From: a virus
Virus record (IMG/VR): IMGVR_UViG_3300028594_000124
Coordinates: 1-10,796 of that record
Length of the DNA stretch: 10,796 nucleotides
Direction: 5' to 3' (one strand)
Shown here: one piece after another, positions 1-10,796 of the stretch
How the letters are laid out: every line of letters starts with the position of its first letter
Numbering within the stretch: the stretch's first letter is position 1
Notes under the pieces: model-generated
What the model was told of the DNA's origin: nothing
Databases searched by the model: none
Seen by the model: only the letters and a program-made list of their open reading frames with translations
Program-made: the position numbers and the translations under genes

Positions 1-118
1 CACCGGCGCATACGTTGCGCTTGCCGATGCCATCGCCGTGCTCAAAGAACAAGGGGGTCGCTCCACTTTCCCCAATTCTGTGAAACATTGTGAAACATTT
101 GTGAGTGTGTGAAACATT
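1..118. repeat. Left inverted terminal repeat (ITR-L), probable protein-primed replication origin
   Basis: Bases 1-118 equal the reverse complement of 10679-10796; identity stops at base 119 (t versus g). The outer 73 bp hold 46 G/C (63%). The inner 45 bp carry three TGTGAAACA copies (79-87, 89-97, 108-116). Confidence 0.9.
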
Positions 119-158
119 TTGAAAAACATTTGTGAAACTTCGGAAAATTCTGTGAAAT
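79..158 (+). promoter_or_regulatory. Left-end array of TGTGAAACA iteron-like repeats
   Basis: Perfect 9-mers start at 79, 89 and 108. Degenerate copies lie at 131-139 (TGTGAAACT) and 151-159 (TGTGAAATT). Start-to-start spacings are 10, 19, 23 and 20 bp, close to multiples of one helical turn. The array extends past the ITR boundary. Confidence 0.7.
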
Positions 159-1614: not shown

Positions 1615-3717
1615 ATGTTTGCTGATTTAAAATATAAAACGTATCGTAAATATAATTACCATACGAAACAATCTACCGAATATCTAAATATAGAATGTTC
1701 TTTTGATATAGAAACAACTTCTACTTATGTAGATGGTGAAAAGTTTGCTTTCATGTATCTATGGGGCTTTGGAATTGGGAATGATGGAAAACATATATAC
1801 TATGGTAGAACATGGGAAGATTTAATGATATTTCTTAATACCCTATCTAGTGAATTAGGTTTACATAAAAATAGGGTGTTAGTCTGTTACGTTCACAATT
1901 TAGCTTATGAGTTTCAATTCATGAGAAAATATTTTGATTGGGTAGGTGTCTTTTCAGTAGATGATAGAAAACCGTTAAAAGCATTATCCACTTTAGGAAT
2001 AGAATTTCGAGATAGTTATATGCTTTCAGGTTTTAGCTTATCTAATACAGCGAAAAATTTACAAAAACATGAAATTAAAAAATTAGTTGGTGATTTAGAT
2101 TATAGTAAAGTAAGACATCATGAAACAGAAATCACTGAATTAGAATTACAGTATTTAGAAAATGATGTTGTCATTGTGTTAAATTACATTAATGAACAGT
2201 TAGATATTTACGGTAAGATAACTAAAATACCTTTAACGAATACAGGTAGGGTTAGGGAATTTGTGAAAGATAACTGTTACTATTCTAAAGGTAAAAGTAA
2301 ATATAAATCTAGCAAGGGTAAAAGAAACAACTATCGTGAAATTATGGAAAACCTAACTTTAAAAGTAGATGAATATCAGAAATTAAAGATGGCTTTCATG
2401 GGTGGTTTTACACATGCCAATGCTTATTATACAGGTAAGACTTTAGAAAATGTTCATTCAGTCGATTTTACAAGTTCCTATCCTGCTGTTATATTATCCG
2501 AACAGTTTCCAATGGGTAGGGGTTTTAAACCAACTAAAGAAGAAATTTTAAAAAATGGATATGATTATTATCTAAATAATTTTAACTGTTTGATAGGCGC
2601 TGTATTTATAAATTTAGAAAACCAATTTGCACATGATAGTTACTTATCTGAAAGTAAGTGTAGAATTAGGGGTGAAAAATTAATAGATAACGGTAGGGTT
2701 TACAGGGCAGAAATGGTGTCTACCATGATAACAGAAGTTGATTTATGGATAATGAAAAAAGTGTATAGTTACGATAGTTTACACATTACAGATTTAACTG
2801 TTTATCCTAAAACCTATTTACCTAAACCAATTATTGAAAGTGTGTTAGATTTGTATCAGGATAAAACAACCCTGAAAGGTGTAGCAGGTTCAGAAGTTGA
2901 ATATATGTTATCTAAAGGAATGTTAAATTCAGTTTATGGAATGATGGTTACAGATATTGTAAAAGATGAAGTTACTTATGAAGAAGATTGGGGTATTGAA
3001 GAAGTAGACCCTGTAGAAGAAATTAAAAACTACAATGAAAAAGTAAGCAGGTTTTTGTACTATCCATGGGGTGTATGGATAACCGCTTATGCAAGGCGGA
3101 ATTTATGGTTAGGAATATTATCCCTGAAAGATGATTATATTTATTCTGATACCGACAGTATAAAATTTTTAAATTATGAAAAACATGAACCATTTTTCAG
3201 GGAATATAATGAATGGGTAGAAAAGAAACAACTTGCTACTCTTAACCATTATAGCATAGATACTAATTTACTCTATCCAAAAACTATTAAGGGTGATGTT
3301 AAAGTTGCAGGGCTATGGGATTATGAAGGAAATTATTCACGTTTTAAAACATTAGGTGCTAAACGTTATTTAGTAGAAGAAGATGATGAATTACATTTGA
3401 CAGTTGCAGGGCTATCAAAACGTAACGGTATCGAATACATGAAAGAAGTTTCAGGTGATAATTCTAAAGTGTTTAAAATGTTTACTGATGAATTAACAAT
3501 ACCTGCTAACAGAACAGGGAAAAGCACACACACTTATATAGACAGTGAACATGAATTTCCTGTTACTGATTATACAGGTAAGACAGTAACGGTAAATGCT
3601 AAATCAGGGGTTCATTTAGAAGAAGTAGAATATAGTTTAAATATCAATGATTTATATGTAAGGTTCTATGAATTAGCACAACAGGGCTACCTGCTAAAAG
3701 GGGTTATAAAACAATAA
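1615..3717 (+). CDS. Protein-primed family-B DNA polymerase (phi29 gp2-like)
   Basis: 700 aa. Motifs seen: ExoI FDIETT, ExoII HNLAYEFQF, ExoIII YLENDVVIV, YxGG-like FMGGF, motif A DFTSSYP, motif B KGMLNSVYG, motif C YSDTDS and KxY GAKRY. The SD GGGGGG lies 6 nt upstream of the ATG. Confidence 0.95.
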   Translation: MFADLKYKTYRKYNYHTKQSTEYLNIECSFDIETTSTYVDGEKFAFMYLWGFGIGNDGKHIYYGRTWEDLMIFLNTLSSELGLHKNRVLVCYVHNLAYEFQFMRKYFDWVGVFSVDDRKPLKALSTLGIEFRDSYMLSGFSLSNTAKNLQKHEIKKLVGDLDYSKVRHHETEITELELQYLENDVVIVLNYINEQLDIYGKITKIPLTNTGRVREFVKDNCYYSKGKSKYKSSKGKRNNYREIMENLTLKVDEYQKLKMAFMGGFTHANAYYTGKTLENVHSVDFTSSYPAVILSEQFPMGRGFKPTKEEILKNGYDYYLNNFNCLIGAVFINLENQFAHDSYLSESKCRIRGEKLIDNGRVYRAEMVSTMITEVDLWIMKKVYSYDSLHITDLTVYPKTYLPKPIIESVLDLYQDKTTLKGVAGSEVEYMLSKGMLNSVYGMMVTDIVKDEVTYEEDWGIEEVDPVEEIKNYNEKVSRFLYYPWGVWITAYARRNLWLGILSLKDDYIYSDTDSIKFLNYEKHEPFFREYNEWVEKKQLATLNHYSIDTNLLYPKTIKGDVKVAGLWDYEGNYSRFKTLGAKRYLVEEDDELHLTVAGLSKRNGIEYMKEVSGDNSKVFKMFTDELTIPANRTGKSTHTYIDSEHEFPVTDYTGKTVTVNAKSGVHLEEVEYSLNINDLYVRFYELAQQGYLLKGVIKQ

Positions 3718-3725
3718 AAATTCTG

Positions 3726-3762
3726 TGTGAAACAGTATTCCAATGTTTCACATGGGGTTTTT
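3726..3762 (+). terminator. Early-operon terminator whose stem is an inverted TGTGAAACA pair; probable dual-use operator
   Basis: TGTGAAACA (3726-3734) and TGTTTCACA (3744-3752) give a perfect 9-bp stem with a 9-nt loop, followed by TGGGGTTTTTTG. The hairpin starts 9 nt after the polymerase stop codon. Confidence 0.65.
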
Positions 3763-3764
3763 TG

Positions 3765-3773
3765 TGTTATAAT
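3765..3773 (+). promoter_or_regulatory. Late promoter, extended -10 (TGTTATAAT)
   Basis: TGnTATAAT lies at 3765-3773. The 16-nt core is near-identical to the promoter at 215-230. The expected -35 position (about 3745-3751) falls inside the TGTTTCACA arm. Confidence 0.55.
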
Positions 3774-3809
3774 AGAGATAGATAATTATGAATGAAAGGG
3801 GGTTTAATA

Positions 3810-4910
3810 TTGGAAATTTTCAATCGAAACAAGTTCTACACGTTAGATAGAATTTTAAAATTAAATGCTACCTATAATATGATTATTGGTGAACGTTCCA
3901 ATGGTAAAACATATGCCTGTTTGAAACATGGGATAGAAGAATATTTTAAAGATGGTTCACAATTTGCAATTGTTAGAAGATGGCAGGAAGATATTAGGGG
4001 TAAGCGTGCAAGTGAAATCTTTTCAGCTTTAATGGATAATGATGAAATATATAAAATTTCTAAAGGTGAATTTAAAGGTATCTATTATTGGGCAGGTAAA
4101 TATTACCTATGTAATTATAGCGAACAGGGTAAGCCTATCTATAATGAGCAGGACGTGATAGCCTATCCATTTGCTTTATCAGATACAGAACATAATAAAT
4201 CAATCACATATCCAAAAATAAATACAATAATCTTTGATGAGTTCCTAACAAGGCAGGTATATTTACCTGATGAATTTGTGTTATTCATGAATACAATTTC
4301 AACTATAGTAAGACAACGTACAACAGTAAAAATATTTATGTTAGGTAATACGGTAAATAGATACTCACCATATTTCACTGAAATGGGTATTACCAATGTA
4401 GATAGACAGGAACAGGGAACGATTGACGTTTATAAATATGGTAACGGTGAATTAAAAGTAGCTTTAGAATACACTAAATCTACAGGGAAATCTAAAGAGA
4501 ACAATTTCTATTTTGCTTTTGACAACCCTAAATTAGAAATGATAACTACAGGTGCATGGGAATTAGATATTTATCCACATTGCCCTGTGAAGTTTAAACC
4601 TAAAGACATCCTGTTTATTTATTTCATAGAATACAATGACGAATTATTTCAGTGTGAAATAGTAAATAAAGATAACAACCTTTTCACTTTCATTCATAGG
4701 AAAACAACAGAATTACAGAATACAGATACTGATTTAATTTACACTTTTGATTATGTACCGAAAATAAATTATAATAGAAGTATATTAAAACCGAGAAATC
4801 AATTAGAAAACCGAATACGTGAGTTCTTTATGTTTGATAAAGTTTACTATCAGGATAATGAAGTGGGTGATAGCATTAATAATTATCTAACACAATGCAG
4901 GAAAGGATAA
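3810..4910 (+). CDS. DNA encapsidation (packaging) ATPase, phi29 gp16-like
   Basis: Walker A GERSNGKTYA (gp16 GARGIGKSYA), FAIVRRW (gp16 FIYVRRY) and Walker B TIIFDEF (gp16 TIVFDEF). I prefer the TTG at 3810, with SD AAAGGGGG 7 nt upstream, over the track ATG at 3792, which has no SD and lies only about 11 nt from the predicted transcription start. Confidence 0.9.
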   Translation: MEIFNRNKFYTLDRILKLNATYNMIIGERSNGKTYACLKHGIEEYFKDGSQFAIVRRWQEDIRGKRASEIFSALMDNDEIYKISKGEFKGIYYWAGKYYLCNYSEQGKPIYNEQDVIAYPFALSDTEHNKSITYPKINTIIFDEFLTRQVYLPDEFVLFMNTISTIVRQRTTVKIFMLGNTVNRYSPYFTEMGITNVDRQEQGTIDVYKYGNGELKVALEYTKSTGKSKENNFYFAFDNPKLEMITTGAWELDIYPHCPVKFKPKDILFIYFIEYNDELFQCEIVNKDNNLFTFIHRKTTELQNTDTDLIYTFDYVPKINYNRSILKPRNQLENRIREFFMFDKVYYQDNEVGDSINNYLTQCRKG

Positions 4911-4921
4911 GGGGTGAGTGA

Positions 4922-5842
4922 GTGGATAAATTAGATAAACAGAATTTTTATGATTTTCAAAATGGAATTGCATTATATAAACCAACTGATAAACTAAGTA
5001 ACATTAATCATTTAATCAATTCATATCTAAACAAAACTTTAGCAATGTTTCAATACACCAATTTACCTGATACATTACCTGATTTAGAATTAGAAAAGAT
5101 GTTGCAGGTGCAGGGGCAGGTGTTCATAACAAAATACAATGATGATGTTGTTGCTTTGAAAATAGATTTACTTCATGATGATGTAGATGTTTACGGTAAA
5201 GCTAAAGCAGGGAACGTTTATTATCCTGATACTAAAGTATTTAAGAAAGTGAATTTGTCTGATGGGGTTTTGATACAGAATGATTATTTAGGTTTAGGAC
5301 TTTTAGAACTGTTTAAAAAATATGCTTACTTAATTAATGAAAGTGCATTATCTTTAAACATGGCGAATTTCTGGAAACGTACTGAAAAAGTATTTACCGC
5401 AAATGATGACGCTACATCAGAAAGTGTTAAAAACTATTTAGCAAAAACTGAAAGGGGTGAAATTGGGTTAGTTACTAGTAATTTACTTTATGAAAGTATT
5501 AAAGTAAATACACCACAAGCAAATGGTACTAGTTTAGGTGAATTAATAGAATACCACAATTATTTAAAGTCGCAACTGTATGCAGAAATTGGTTTATATA
5601 CCAATGAGAACAGAAAGAAAGAACGACTAATAACAAGTGAAGTAGAAACAGGTTTAAATGCTATCTATCCATTAGTAGATAATATGTTAGATAATCGTGT
5701 GCAGGGAATGGTAAAGGTCAATGAAATGTTTGATTTAGATATTCAAGTTGAATTTATGAGTTCATGGAAAGCGAACAATGAAGATAGTGAAAATATGGAT
5801 CCAAAAATTGAAGATTTAAAAATTTTAGAAGATGATGATTAG
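4922..5842 (+). CDS. Portal / head-tail connector (upper collar) protein, phi29 gp10-like
   Basis: 306 aa (gp10 is 309 aa). FQYTNLPDTLPDLELEKML resembles gp10 FEWENLPPTINPSFLEKSI. NENRKKERLITSEVE resembles gp10 NLEKKERMVTDEVS. GTG start with SD AAGGGGTGAG. Confidence 0.85.
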   Translation: MDKLDKQNFYDFQNGIALYKPTDKLSNINHLINSYLNKTLAMFQYTNLPDTLPDLELEKMLQVQGQVFITKYNDDVVALKIDLLHDDVDVYGKAKAGNVYYPDTKVFKKVNLSDGVLIQNDYLGLGLLELFKKYAYLINESALSLNMANFWKRTEKVFTANDDATSESVKNYLAKTERGEIGLVTSNLLYESIKVNTPQANGTSLGELIEYHNYLKSQLYAEIGLYTNENRKKERLITSEVETGLNAIYPLVDNMLDNRVQGMVKVNEMFDLDIQVEFMSSWKANNEDSENMDPKIEDLKILEDDD

Positions 5843-5852
5843 GGGGTTTTTG

Positions 5853-6083
5853 ATGGAAAGTTCTATTTTAGATGTTGTTAGTAATTTAGGTTTCCCTATA
5901 GCGGTGAGTGTAACATTGTTTTATCAGATGAATAAAACGAATGAAACATACGTGAAATTATTACGTGATTTTCAGGATGTAATAAGTAACAATACACATT
6001 CTATTAAGTTACTAAATGCTACCGTTCATGAATTGAAAAATGATTTAGGTTATAGAGATGTAGATACAGGTGAAAGAAAATGA
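5853..6083 (+). CDS. Small single-pass membrane protein with a YvrJ-like N-terminus; holin candidate
   Basis: 76 aa from the ATG at 5853, with SD AGGGGG 5 nt upstream. ILDVVSNLGFPIAVSVTLFY is a hydrophobic helix carrying the N-x-GFP motif I associate with the Bacillus YvrJ family. It is followed by a polar helical tail. The stop overlaps the next start (ATGA at 6080-6083). Confidence 0.6.
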   Translation: MESSILDVVSNLGFPIAVSVTLFYQMNKTNETYVKLLRDFQDVISNNTHSIKLLNATVHELKNDLGYRDVDTGERK

Positions 6084-6683: not shown

Positions 6684-7838
6684 ATGAAAGTAGAACAAAT
6701 TCATACAATTTTAAATACAGTTACAAATGAAGTGTTAGGTACAGAAAATTTAGTTAGTGAAGATTTATCCAATATTGTTGATGTTGGTAATGAAATTTTA
6801 AATGCTGAAAAGGTAGATAGTTATGTTAAAAAATTAGTACACCACATTGGGAAAGTAGAATTTTCTAATCGTAAATATAGGGGTAATGCTAAATCAGTAT
6901 TAATGGATAGTTGGGAATATGGTTCAATTTTACAAAAGATTGAAAGTGAATTACCTGAAGCAACTGAAAATGAGTCATGGAATTTAGTAGATGGACAATC
7001 TTATGACCCTAATGTTTTCCATCAACCAAAAGTATCTTCTAAATTTTTTGATAGTAAAGTTACGTTTGAAATTCCTGTATCATTTGCAGAAAAACAAGTA
7101 AAAGGGTCATTCTCAAATGCTAGTCAGATGAACGGTTTCCTAACAATGATTACGAACAACGTTGAAAATTCATTAACGATTAAATTAGATAGTTTAATTA
7201 TGCGAACAATTAATAACTTCATTGGGGCTACATTATTAGATGAAAATTCTAATACTAGTGTAAACTTGCTGAAAATGTATAATGACGCTATGGGTGAAAC
7301 TTTAACAGTTGCAGATGCTTTAACAGATAGTGCGTTTTTACGTTATGCCAACTTCATTATCAATACATACACTGATAGAATGTCACGTATTTCTACACTG
7401 TTTAATAAAGGTGGTAAAGAACGTTTTACGAATAAAGAAAATGCTAATCTAATTCTATTGACTGATTTTGTAAATAGTTCAGATGTGTTCTTACAATCAG
7501 ATGTACGACACAATGAATTAACAGGTGTAGCTAAATTTGATACGGTTCCTTATTGGCAAGGTTCAGGTACAGGGTATTCATTAGATGAAATTTCATCTAT
7601 CAATGTATCTGTAAATGACGGTACAGCGACTTCTAAAACAGTTGAACAATCAGGAATTATCGGAGTACTGTTTGATAGACAAGCACTAGGGGTTACGAAT
7701 TTAGATAAACGTGTTACAACGAATTACAATCCTAAAGCAGAATTTTATACTAACTTCTATAAAGCAGATGGCGGATACTTTAACGACTTTAACCAAAACT
7801 TTGTTGTATTCTACATTGAAGATGATAGTGCTGCTTAA
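6684..7838 (+). CDS. Major capsid protein (HK97-fold, Picovirinae type)
   Basis: 384 aa. It has a strong SD (AAAGGGGTAG) and is followed by a strong terminator, as expected for the most abundant virion protein. GVLFDRQALGV resembles phi29 gp8 AVLVDKDWFMV. There is no Ig-like C-terminal extension. Confidence 0.75.
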   Translation: MKVEQIHTILNTVTNEVLGTENLVSEDLSNIVDVGNEILNAEKVDSYVKKLVHHIGKVEFSNRKYRGNAKSVLMDSWEYGSILQKIESELPEATENESWNLVDGQSYDPNVFHQPKVSSKFFDSKVTFEIPVSFAEKQVKGSFSNASQMNGFLTMITNNVENSLTIKLDSLIMRTINNFIGATLLDENSNTSVNLLKMYNDAMGETLTVADALTDSAFLRYANFIINTYTDRMSRISTLFNKGGKERFTNKENANLILLTDFVNSSDVFLQSDVRHNELTGVAKFDTVPYWQGSGTGYSLDEISSINVSVNDGTATSKTVEQSGIIGVLFDRQALGVTNLDKRVTTNYNPKAEFYTNFYKADGGYFNDFNQNFVVFYIEDDSAA

Positions 7839-8286: not shown

Positions 8287-9942
8287 ATGGCAAGTGAATT
8301 ATTACGTATGGTTGAACATGTTGAGTTATGGGGCGACCCTGAAATTGTTAAATTGACAGGTTATTTAACTGAAAGTAAAAAGAATTTATTACTAACTGTT
8401 GAATTAAAAAACCACTATTTCATAGACCCTATAAAATTTACAATGAAACGTGATACAAGGGGTGATTTTAACTATAATCACATTAGTTTTAGTGATTCTA
8501 CACAAGGTGTAATATCTGAAATGATTGACGGTGTAGAAAGAAATACAGGAATTATATCTCTTAATGTTGGGTTAGATACCACCACTACAAAAGTTGAAGT
8601 TATTGTCAGTCCTGATAACATTGTTCAATATGAACCACAAATTGATGGACAATCTTTAATGATTGAAAATTATAATGTTGTAAATGCTTATGTTGATACT
8701 AGTTATATACCGTTTAATTCTAGTGGGGTGATAGTTAGTAATTTCAGTTCTGATGGTGATAACGTTCAAGAAGTTGTGATTGAAGATACTTTACGTGTTA
8801 CAGCAAATGATGGGTATAAATTTGATTTAGATAATTTAGAAGATTATTATTTTGATGTTCAATTTCAACCGTATAATTATAATTTACGTTTGAGTTATGA
8901 TAGTACTGTACCATTCATACGTGTAAATCTTTCAGAATTTAGACCTGCTACAGGTATATCAACTTTTAATTGGATAGAAAAAAGCTCTAGTTATCCACTA
9001 TATCAAAGCGTACCTACTGATGGTACTATGTTCTATACTTATTCTGTAGGTGATACTAAACATTTGTTATTGTTATATGGTGGGTTACGTGAAAATGATT
9101 TACTATTTTTCACTTTCACTAAATCAAAATCAGGTTATGATGATATAGCATTTACTATGAACGGTGAAGAGTGGGTTAGGACAGATTTATTTTCTGCTAG
9201 TCTTTACGATTCTATAACAGATGAACGTCTTGAATTGAGTTTTTTAAATAATCTAAATTTTGTTGCCGTACCATCTACAACTACACCTATAGAAGATACT
9301 TCTAAATATTTATTTAATACTTATTACATTGATAATTCTGATTTGTCTATGTTACGTGAAAATAGTGGGTTAGTGAGTGAAGTGATTATAAATACCTATT
9401 CCTATCCTATAAACTTTTCAGATGATGATTTGGTAGATGTAGATTTTTCAGTAGCGAATATTACACAAAATATTCCTGCTAAACGATTTTTATTTAATAA
9501 TACAGAAGTAGAAATTTTTAAATTTACTATTCCTGATGTTCCTGATGTTTCAGATATACGTATCAGAATACCGTTTAATAATGATGTTACACTACACTAT
9601 GAAGATGTTAGGGGTAAAACAATAACAGGTAGATTTAGTTATGAAGTTTTAACGAATAGTACAACGTTATTTATTAATGATGGGGTTACAGATATTTACA
9701 AAAACATGGTAGGTGTTGGTGTTGTTGTACCATACAGGGCTACAGGTAGATATGATGGGGGTAACGACCCTACAACACGTTTAGCAGTTGATGAACCTAA
9801 GTTATTCATTAAAGGGGTTGGTAAAACGATAAAAGGAAATTACATTCAGGGTACGATTGGTAAAGTAGTTGAAAATATGTTAAATTCAGAACGTGATAAA
9901 TTAAATACATTACTAGAGAATGGGGTGTTTTTCAATGATTGA
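8287..9942 (+). CDS. Tail knob C-terminal segment, probably also the receptor-binding protein
   Basis: 551 aa. The C-terminal NSERDKLNTLLENGVFF resembles the phi29 gp9 C-terminal NNDLQEIRTIFDNGITLW. EIFKFTIPDV...IRIRIPFNNDVTLHYEDVRGKTITGRFSYEV recalls gp9 [23 protein letters not shown]...KIQVRGSLG. It has its own SD (GGGGGTG) 6 nt upstream of the ATG. No other tail or fibre gene is present in the genome. Confidence 0.55.
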   Translation: MASELLRMVEHVELWGDPEIVKLTGYLTESKKNLLLTVELKNHYFIDPIKFTMKRDTRGDFNYNHISFSDSTQGVISEMIDGVERNTGIISLNVGLDTTTTKVEVIVSPDNIVQYEPQIDGQSLMIENYNVVNAYVDTSYIPFNSSGVIVSNFSSDGDNVQEVVIEDTLRVTANDGYKFDLDNLEDYYFDVQFQPYNYNLRLSYDSTVPFIRVNLSEFRPATGISTFNWIEKSSSYPLYQSVPTDGTMFYTYSVGDTKHLLLLYGGLRENDLLFFTFTKSKSGYDDIAFTMNGEEWVRTDLFSASLYDSITDERLELSFLNNLNFVAVPSTTTPIEDTSKYLFNTYYIDNSDLSMLRENSGLVSEVIINTYSYPINFSDDDLVDVDFSVANITQNIPAKRFLFNNTEVEIFKFTIPDVPDVSDIRIRIPFNNDVTLHYEDVRGKTITGRFSYEVLTNSTTLFINDGVTDIYKNMVGVGVVVPYRATGRYDGGNDPTTRLAVDEPKLFIKGVGKTIKGNYIQGTIGKVVENMLNSERDKLNTLLENGVFFND

Positions 9943-10618
9943 TTTATTTATAGCAGGTCATGGTAAAAATTTAAAAACAGGTGGTTTTGATACAGGTGCA
10001 ACAGGTTATATTTCAAAAGGTGAGCATAGATATATGACAGAAGATTTATTCCCTGCCATGAAAAAATATATACCTGATGGTGTTAAACCTATTTTCCATA
10101 CTGAATATAATGTTTATAGTCAGGGAAATATTGTTTCACTTGCTAAGAAGTATGGAAAAGATGTAAGGGTAACAGAATTTCATTTTGACGCAGGCGGTGT
10201 AAACTATTCAAAAGCAGGTGGACACGTTATTATTCAATCAGGGTTAAAACCTGATGAATTAGATTTACGATTAAGAGATGCTATCAAAAATACAACAGGG
10301 TTACACCCTATTCATTCTGATGGTATCAGTAGACGTAACAACTTACTTAATCCACGTTTAGCTATGCAAGGTGGTATTAATTATAGGTTACTAGAATTAG
10401 GAATGAGTACACATAAAGAGAATGCTAACTACATGATTAACAATGTTGATACCATTGCTAAAGAGTTAGTAAAAGCATTTTATTCTACTACTAAATCTAC
10501 ACCATCAACAGATAAATTATACAGGGTACAAGTTGGTGCATTTAAAAAGTTAGATAATGCAAAACAATTACAAAATGAATTGCGTGCTAAAGGTTATGAT
10601 GATTGTTTTATAATCTAA
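9935..10618 (+). CDS. Endolysin: N-acetylmuramoyl-L-alanine amidase (Amidase_3, CwlC-like) with a short C-terminal SPOR-like repeat
   Basis: IAGHGKN..GGFDTGATGY..GEH, FHFDAG and LELGMSTHKENANYM fit the Amidase_3 zinc and catalytic pattern. After a T/S/P linker, the C-terminal YRVQVGAFKKLDNAKQLQNELRAKGYDDCFII fits a SPOR repeat. I prefer the ATG at 9935 (SD GGGGTG 7 nt upstream, an ATGATTGA overlap with the upstream stop) over 9920. Confidence 0.88.
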   Translation: MIDLFIAGHGKNLKTGGFDTGATGYISKGEHRYMTEDLFPAMKKYIPDGVKPIFHTEYNVYSQGNIVSLAKKYGKDVRVTEFHFDAGGVNYSKAGGHVIIQSGLKPDELDLRLRDAIKNTTGLHPIHSDGISRRNNLLNPRLAMQGGINYRLLELGMSTHKENANYMINNVDTIAKELVKAFYSTTKSTPSTDKLYRVQVGAFKKLDNAKQLQNELRAKGYDDCFII

Positions 10619-10629
10619 TAGATATTTGA

Positions 10630-10660
10630 ACGTGGTATAAATATTTATATCACGTTTTTT
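10630..10660 (+). terminator. Rho-independent terminator of the late operon
   Basis: The stem ACGTGGTATA (10630-10639) pairs with TATATCACGT (10646-10655) with one G-U pair and a 6-nt loop. It is followed by TTTTTT (10655-10660) and starts 12 nt after the endolysin stop. Confidence 0.75.
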
Positions 10661-10718
10661 GTTTCACAGACTGCACACAATGTTTCACACACTCACAAAT
10701 GTTTCACAATGTTTCACA
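10660..10718 (-). promoter_or_regulatory. Right-end array of TGTGAAACA iteron-like repeats (read as TGTTTCACA on the plus strand)
   Basis: Perfect copies lie at 10660-10668 (outside the ITR), 10681-10689, 10700-10708 and 10710-10718, with spacings of 21, 19 and 10 bp. The copy outside the ITR mirrors the left-end degenerate copy at 131-139 to within 2 bp. Confidence 0.7.
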
Positions 10719-10796
10719 GAATTGGGGAAAGTGGAGCGACCCCCTTGTTCTTTGAGCACGGCGATGGCATCGGCAAGCGCAACGTATGCGCCGGTG
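10679..10796. repeat. Right inverted terminal repeat (ITR-R), probable protein-primed replication origin
   Basis: Exact reverse complement of 1-118. Carries TGTTTCACA at 10681-10689, 10700-10708 and 10710-10718. Confidence 0.9.

Follow-up and report, generated by a model that had tools for sequence, protein, structure and literature searches.

The ends of the window (the whole 10.8-kb stretch of DNA analysed here) carry one-directional arrays of the 9-mer TGTGAAACA, which consists of a T followed by GTGAAACA, one of the two arms of palindromic parS (TGTTNCAC|GTGAAACA), and this terminal motif is very probably derived from parS. The initial annotation had proposed that the repeats are selected binding sites at both ends for a protein encoded by the phage. 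The first part of this proposal stands, given that the half-sites are conserved between diverged spacers, that a copy lies beyond the terminal repeat on each side and that the polarity is strict. The second part is not supported, since the motif is a parS half-site and sister genomes have full parS at homologous positions. The two central copies, which had been read as an inverted pair of protein-binding sites, are the arms of a probable RNA terminator hairpin with compensatory changes and are not of the operator type.

Genome organisation

The window is a complete genome of a phi29-like podovirus with protein-primed replication. All of its genes lie on the + strand, with 12 long ORFs, and non-coding DNA amounts to 775 bp (7.2% of the window); no near match was found among GenBank phages. 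For the two relatives closest by capsid protein, the contigs come from metagenome bins that bear the labels Clostridiaceae and Tissierella, a weak indication of the host. The features discussed below are as follows.

1-121: left terminal inverted repeat of 121 nt, 99% complementary to 10676-10796
79-116, + strand: three perfect copies of TGTGAAACA (79-87, 89-97, 108-116) within the left terminal repeat, reading inward
131-159, + strand: two more copies beyond the terminal repeat, namely TGTGAAACT at 131-139, whose GTGAAAC heptamer is perfect, and TGTGAAATT at 151-159, which is degenerate
215-223, + strand: early promoter predicted from sequence and alignment, extended -10 TGTTATAAT, conserved in relatives
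321-677, + strand: ORF1, 118 aa, no assigned function
690-714: terminator
741-974, + strand: XRE-type helix-turn-helix (HTH) protein, 77 aa
977-1579, + strand: terminal-protein-like ORF (ORF3)
1581-1597: mutated parS relic TATTCCAACGTGATACA, between ORF3 and polB, just upstream of the polB ribosome-binding site
1615-3717, + strand: protein-primed DNA polymerase, polB
3716-3763, + strand: RNA hairpin of the intrinsic-terminator type, AAAAAUUCUGUGUGAAACA / UGUUUCACAUGGGGUUUUU and a U-tract
3765-3773, + strand: predicted late promoter, extended -10 TGTTATAAT, just 3' of the central hairpin, conserved in seven genomes
3792-4910, + strand: gp16-type packaging ATPase
4922-5842, + strand: connector
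5832-6083, + strand: holin
6684-7838, + strand: phi29-type capsid protein
9920-10618, + strand: endolysin
10628-10657, + strand: terminator 3' of the endolysin gene, directly followed by the first right-end half-site
10660-10718, - strand: four perfect copies of TGTGAAACA at the right end, reading inward from the terminus

The left array of half-sites is situated some 60-140 bp upstream of the predicted early -10. A consensus promoter scan of the window returned 54 matches where 67 were expected. An Rfam search of the window identified no pRNA and no other RNA family, despite the presence of a gp16-type ATPase and a phi29-type connector, and its only two matches, to miRNA families and due to chance, both fall on the central hairpin. 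Downstream of the early promoter, a 15-codon ORF (245-292) is preceded by a strong ribosome-binding site, AAGGGGG. Its counterpart in L180, L182, L187 and L188 is a protein of 58-62 aa, for which the L188 copy gave no Pfam match, and most of this ORF has apparently been lost in the window and in L178/L179.

Distribution of the 9-mer

An exact count over both strands recovers the nine perfect copies of TGTGAAACA that had been reported by eye, at 79, 89, 108 and 3726 on the + strand and at 3744, 10660, 10681, 10700 and 10710 on the - strand, against 0.23 expected; in 200 dinucleotide-preserving shuffles a count of nine never arose. As had been claimed, every copy is outside the 12 long ORFs, and one-mismatch copies in coding DNA are at chance level (seven against 5.6). 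Six of the nine are three terminal-repeat copies, each counted twice, and the central pair makes up the two complementary arms of a single hairpin, so that there are about five independent occurrences, which is still far above chance.

The other positional claims of the initial annotation also hold. The spacings are near multiples of 10 bp on both sides (10, 19, 23 and 20 on the left; 21, 19 and 10 on the right), and no left copy deviates by more than about 2.5 bp from one helical face, though this phasing is not kept in relatives, whose spacings also include 13, 16 and 26. Beyond the repeat boundary, the copy at 131-139 mirrors that at 10660-10668 with an offset of 2 bp, both being outside the 1-121/10676-10796 repeat, while the remaining right-end copies (10681-10689, 10700-10708 and 10710-10718) are inside it. 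The flanking context AATTCTGTG does recur three times, at 74-82, 146-154 and 3719-3727.

Relationship of the 9-mer to parS

parS is the universal centromere site of bacterial chromosomes, and its B. subtilis consensus, which ParB/Spo0J binds, is TGTTNCACGTGAAACA. The half-site positions that separate parS from the Noc site are G2 and A7 of TGTTTCAC. The chromosomal parS consensus is given as TGTTTCACGTGAAACA (PMC7022226, Table 1), and the same 16-bp palindrome, which we identified as parS by full-text search, is found within the terminal repeats of many relatives of the window. In the window itself no site matches the full parS TGTTNCACGTGAAACA with three or fewer mismatches, and the 16-bp palindrome is thus missing. 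The half-parS heptamer, defined as GTTTCAC/GTTCCAC (PMC5961200; PMC7022226), is on the other hand enriched over chance, with 12 copies of GTGAAAC against 1.3 expected, 10 of them non-coding. Positional homology with bona fide parS can also be traced, at the central pair and at the relic at 1581-1597.

The comparison drew on about 170 related loci from IMG/VR and the GTDB genome collection, the latter mostly contigs from metagenome bins with capsid proteins 46-75% identical to that of the window. About 50 loci are complete, and their terminal repeats measure 66-900 bp. In 163 of these phi29-like loci (1.69 Mb) we found 59 perfect 16-bp parS sites, distributed over 30 loci, and 163 matches with up to three mismatches, compared to 5-10 in shuffled sequences. 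The perfect sites are situated mostly in terminal repeats and between genes: 52 of the 59 fall outside ORFs that are 100 aa or longer, though 88% of the sequence is taken up by such ORFs. In L024, internal parS sites adjoin hairpin-like inverted repeats at gene ends. One locus, L170 (11840 nt), has about 18 parS-like sites (up to three mismatches) along its whole length, far above other members of the family.

Full parS sites in the closest relatives and their loss in the window

Close relatives were found by searching with ORF1, and their contigs were then compared. Five of them (L173, L175, L180, L182 and L188), with ORF1 76-84% identical to that of the window, have two to four perfect parS sites each. 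Two full parS sites occupy the spacer between polB and the ATPase gene, just upstream of the extended -10 TGTTATAAT, and are arranged as TGTTTCACGTGGAACA-N11-TGTTTCACGTGGAACA in L188 and as TGTTCCACGTGAAACA-N9-TGTTCCACGTGGAACA in L173. The central copies of the window align with the inner arms of the two palindromes of its relatives; the 9-nt spacer is the same, and the outer arms have been replaced.

A third position tells of the same loss. The relic at 1581-1597 differs from parS in that one G has become A, one A has become T and 1 nt has been inserted between these changes, and its position is taken by a perfect parS in all five relatives and by a site with one mismatch in L187. In L191, the closest relative covering the centre, the right arm is gone at this position, the centre has half-sites only, as in the window, and no parS is present. 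The sub-lineage of the window and L191 has lost all three internal full parS sites, while the terminal half-sites are still perfect. In our reading, the ancestors of the window carried complete parS sites between genes together with one-directional half-site arrays at both ends, and the complete sites were subsequently lost, one by mutation to the relic at 1581-1597 and two by remodelling into the hairpin at 3716-3763, with four to five half-sites per end kept in perfect form.

The central pair forms an RNA hairpin

The hairpin at 3716-3763, which has the copies at 3726-3734 (+) and 3744-3752 (-) as the core of its arms, is derived from two tandem full parS sites. Its 19-bp stem stands between an A-tract and a U-tract, and its folding energy is -24.2 kcal/mol (z -6.55). 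The structure, ending in UUUUUU, occupies the 0-45 nt that follow the polB stop, as expected of the stem-loop and U-tract of an intrinsic terminator. Five G-U pairs in the stem mean that the pairing exists only in RNA of the + strand. A consensus terminator scan missed this hairpin, owing to its 9-nt loop.

An equivalent hairpin, of -21 to -26 kcal/mol, is present in all seven genomes of the sister group. The six relatives fold as well as the window, and there two palindromic parS sites pair with each other. Neither the window nor L191 has intact palindromes any longer, and the pairing is retained, with four pairs changed on both sides. These compensatory changes come from two lineages only and lend modest support to a terminator. 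Taken with the structure, they make it likely that the central hairpin is a terminator and, from its sequence and position just upstream of the predicted late promoter, it is probably that of the early (replication) operon.

Half-site arrays at the ends of related genomes

Comparison of the ends of related genomes, a check that had been proposed with the initial annotation, reveals one-directional half-site arrays at the ends of sister genomes as well. The left ends of L188/L189 have six half-sites (one TGTGGAACA and five TGTGAAACA), that of L173 has four followed by a full parS, and the truncated ends of L175, L180 and L182 begin within the array. One array member in the sister genomes is the variant GTGGAAC, which the parS consensus allows. 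More distant phages share the feature: L014, whose capsid protein is 51% identical, has five or more copies of the TGTGAAACA type at one end and 10 or more at the other, and L006 (capsid protein 32% and polB 27% identical) has six tandem copies at its end.

Across the window, L173, L175, L180, L182, L188, L014 and L006, and excluding the two arms of the full parS of L173, all 40 of 40 terminal half-sites point inward and none is reversed. Their spacings cluster at about 10, 20 and 29 bp, and 13, 16, 23 and 26 bp also occur. The half-sites of the window, L173 and L188 are conserved, but the spacers between them vary in both length and sequence. A sister clade (L002, L093, L183 and L185) has repeats of the TTCACACAA type instead, in the opposite orientation and with no parS.

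Candidate binders of the terminal arrays

Being half of parS, the 9-mer most likely recruits host ParB rather than a phage protein, and from the sequence we give host ParB about an even chance of being the present binder of the terminal arrays. Several ParBs are known to bind GTTTCAC/GTTCCAC half-sites without spreading (PMC5961200; PMC7022226), though a re-analysis of ChIP-seq data found no half-site enrichment for B. subtilis ParB (PMC7022226). We propose that host ParB would bind the arrays through its helix-turn-helix domain in this non-spreading 'half-parS' mode, and that a small ParB cluster would form on roughly one face of each terminus. The linear genome could thereby be tied to the host ParB/partition complex and carried along at division or sporulation, as would be the case for phi29 with its parS sites, of which there are five and for which there is evidence that Spo0J helps the phage genome into the prespore (PMC2731898).

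The array of L006, a phage that has no XRE gene, points to a factor common to the hosts. Three further observations sit less easily with ParB. First, in having no parS at up to three mismatches, the window is without a site at which ParB normally loads, and the fact that its sub-lineage lost full parS yet kept the arrays indicates that the two classes of site may serve different partners. Second, the strict polarity of the arrays is unexpected for descendants of a symmetric site, though tandem duplication could give rise to it. Third, the repeats of the sister clade (L002, L093 and L183) look like drift together with a phage-specific binder, which counts against ParB.

The phage itself encodes one candidate for sequence-specific binding, viz., the XRE-type protein at 741-974, which had been named in the initial annotation. 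It would bind the direct repeats for protein-primed initiation and/or for control of the early and late promoters, and the resemblance to parS would then reflect an origin from, or a competition with, ParB sites. Its gene is in the early operon at the position of phi29 p4, it has a sequence-specific DNA-binding fold (HTH_3, E 4.5e-5, SinR-like), and the sister group with TGTGAAACA arrays shows no variation in its recognition helix. The persistence of terminal arrays after the loss of all full parS sites would also suit a phage protein. So would the lineage-specific short direct repeats found within the first 250 nt, in the terminal repeats of many family members (L059, L065, L044, L037/L052, L084, L086, L057/L062, L068 and L103; for example TTTTGACAC, TAAAGTGATAAAG, GGACAGCC, TAAGTCAG and ATAGGAGCAATT), often alongside parS, which suggest a second class of end-binding sites and that phage-encoded end-binding proteins exist.

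The recognition helix does not track the repeats, however. XRE homologues are found alongside terminal repeats of quite different kinds, both in phages that have parS and in phages that do not, L014 combines the motif of the window with the recognition helix of a clade that has different repeats, and no co-variation between recognition helix and repeat type was found. L006, with its six tandem copies, lacks an XRE gene, and the first gene of this phage is weakly RHH-like. Moreover, small XRE dimers normally bind palindromes with half-sites about 10 bp apart near promoters, whereas the terminal repeats of the window are direct and lie 60-140 bp upstream of the early -10 on the left and, on the right, downstream of the final terminator, and the central arms are 18 bp apart. 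We consider the XRE protein an unlikely binder.

The other protein that had been put forward, the product of ORF1 (321-677), is not supported as the binder either. It has no sequence match in Pfam, PHROG or the PDB, and its AF2 model (pLDDT 86) is a beta-rich fold with three helices, for which Foldseek found nothing significant. The top weak matches are all to single-stranded-DNA-binding proteins, viz., PRD1 P12 (probability 0.54) followed by LEF-3, PURA and RPA70N, and on this model ORF1 may be a single-stranded-DNA-binding protein of the phage. ORF1 is widespread, with 131 clusters, and most of the 120 listed are 59-92% identical.

Rather improbable, in our estimate, is that the one-directional arrays are a distinct element separated from ordinary parS function. 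Such an element might hold host ParB at the ends without loading or spreading, as a helper, supplied by the host, for protein-primed initiation like NFI/Oct-1 in adenovirus. Alternatively, a phage protein might have evolved the DNA specificity of ParB, so as to occupy or compete for centromere-type sites. Either version would explain why every complete parS was discarded while the arrays were kept perfect.

Very unlikely is recognition of TTCACA/TGTGAA by another host factor for direct repeats of about one helical turn, such as a response regulator of the OmpR/PhoB type, by which phage replication or transcription would be coupled to host physiology. The repeats are direct with 10-bp and approximately 20-bp spacing, the motif is common to unrelated phages, and TTCACA would fit the B. 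subtilis PhoP half-site, TT(A/T/C)ACA. However, the conserved unit is 8-9 nt long, is a parS arm and is positionally homologous to full parS in sister genomes, and the spacings vary (13, 16, 23 and 26) unlike those of response-regulator boxes.

It is similarly very doubtful that the terminal copies are functionless parS remnants, multiplied by slippage and homogenised by the terminal repeats. The internal parS sites have clearly decayed in the lineage of the window, and six of the nine copies are terminal-repeat duplicates, but copies just beyond the terminal repeat have been kept on both sides within diverged flanks, half-sites have been kept among the differing spacers of the window, L173 and L188, and the arrays recur in distant phages. 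The DnaA, Rex and Spo0A boxes and the sites of CRP, WalR and PhoP were set aside as candidates given that the motif is a parS arm that aligns with the full parS of relatives.

Comparison with known systems

The closest likeness is to the parS sites of phi29, which is also a phi29-type protein-primed phage with a host centromere sequence in non-coding DNA, and in relatives of the window, perfect parS sites of 16 bp are likewise present, both terminally and in the spaces between operons. The window differs in that it has no complete palindrome and only one-directional half-site arrays at both ends. In phi29 the sites are linked to spore entrapment through Spo0J/ParB, a role that, like a spore-forming host, would be only putative for the window. 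With the half-parS sites of chromosomal ParB (P. aeruginosa and others) the window shares the heptamer GTTTCAC/GTTCCAC with no palindromic partner, but those are single and scattered over chromosomes, while here four to six are packed into about 90 bp in one orientation at both ends.

Short direct repeats at about one helical turn are also seen in R1 parC/ParR, the omega heptads of pSM19035 and the iterons of plasmid Rep proteins, and in each case such an array would line up a protein on one side of the DNA. The window has no ParR, omega or Rep gene, its repeat has the sequence of a ParB half-site, and it replicates by terminal protein and polB, so its direct repeats do not qualify as plasmid-type iterons. 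In adenovirus, sites for the host proteins NFI and Oct-1 lie within the terminal repeat, internal to the terminal core origin. The window may resemble it in having host-protein sites in the terminal repeat of a protein-primed linear genome, but the proteins and sequences differ, the analogy is functional only, and any link of the repeats to initiation would be by that analogy.

An analogy to the phi29 p6 complex, also suggested initially, was not borne out. The likeness lies in a protein coating of the terminal 100-200 bp or so at each end. The p6 protein binds without sequence specificity and with a 24-bp period, whereas the repeats of the window are an exact 9-mer spaced at 10-23 bp, and no ORF of the window has a Pfam or PHROG match to p6.

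To our knowledge, which here and below rests on a narrow literature search, phi29 and its close relatives are the only lytic phages documented to use a host centromere. The survey above suggests that this strategy is widespread in small uncultivated phi29-like phages of gut, rumen and environmental origin, usually with the sites inside terminal repeats. We know of no description of half-site-only, one-directional arrays at both ends of a linear phage, or of a parS pair turned into a terminator, though we make no firm claim of priority for either. The window is a natural case of separation of function, with half-sites only and no loading site, and its array of about 90 bp offers a compact substrate for the effect of ParB on half-parS, an open question in the ParB literature; at its centre, a centromere pair has probably been converted to an RNA terminator. 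Should the binder be other than ParB, the arrays would point to a phage protein converging on centromere specificity.

Genome ends and further repeat arrays

The outer 40 nt of each end (1-40 and 10757-10796) have 68% GC compared to 31% in the genome, and the contigs L188/L189, L173 and L002 begin at the equivalent of about position 41 of the window (GATTAAAGAAC...). These 40 nt found no match in IMG/VR and only chance matches in plasmids, and they may be a linker or chimeric artefact, and perhaps not phage sequence, or a lineage-specific extension. Sliding-back initiation of the phi29 type uses reiteration of the terminal base, and the end of the window has no such reiteration. In L033 the apparent terminal repeat (1-50) starts with what we take to be an Illumina Nextera adaptor (...GTCTCGTGGGCTCGGAGATGTGTATAAGAGACAG), and thus some 'terminal repeats' in public phage contigs include library adaptors.

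Arrays of TGTGAAACA also occur in non-coding DNA of two larger phage contigs of 50 and 86 kb (L010 at 1240-1380 and L015 at 4230-4360), as pairs 10 bp apart repeated every 32 bp and with no partition genes nearby. In L006 (1-340), a gap of 10 bp separates the last of the six tandem TGTGAAACAA units from a consensus promoter, TTGACA-N17-TATAGAAT, which drives the gene for the weakly RHH-like protein of 54 aa, an arrangement typical of an auto-regulated repeat-binding repressor.
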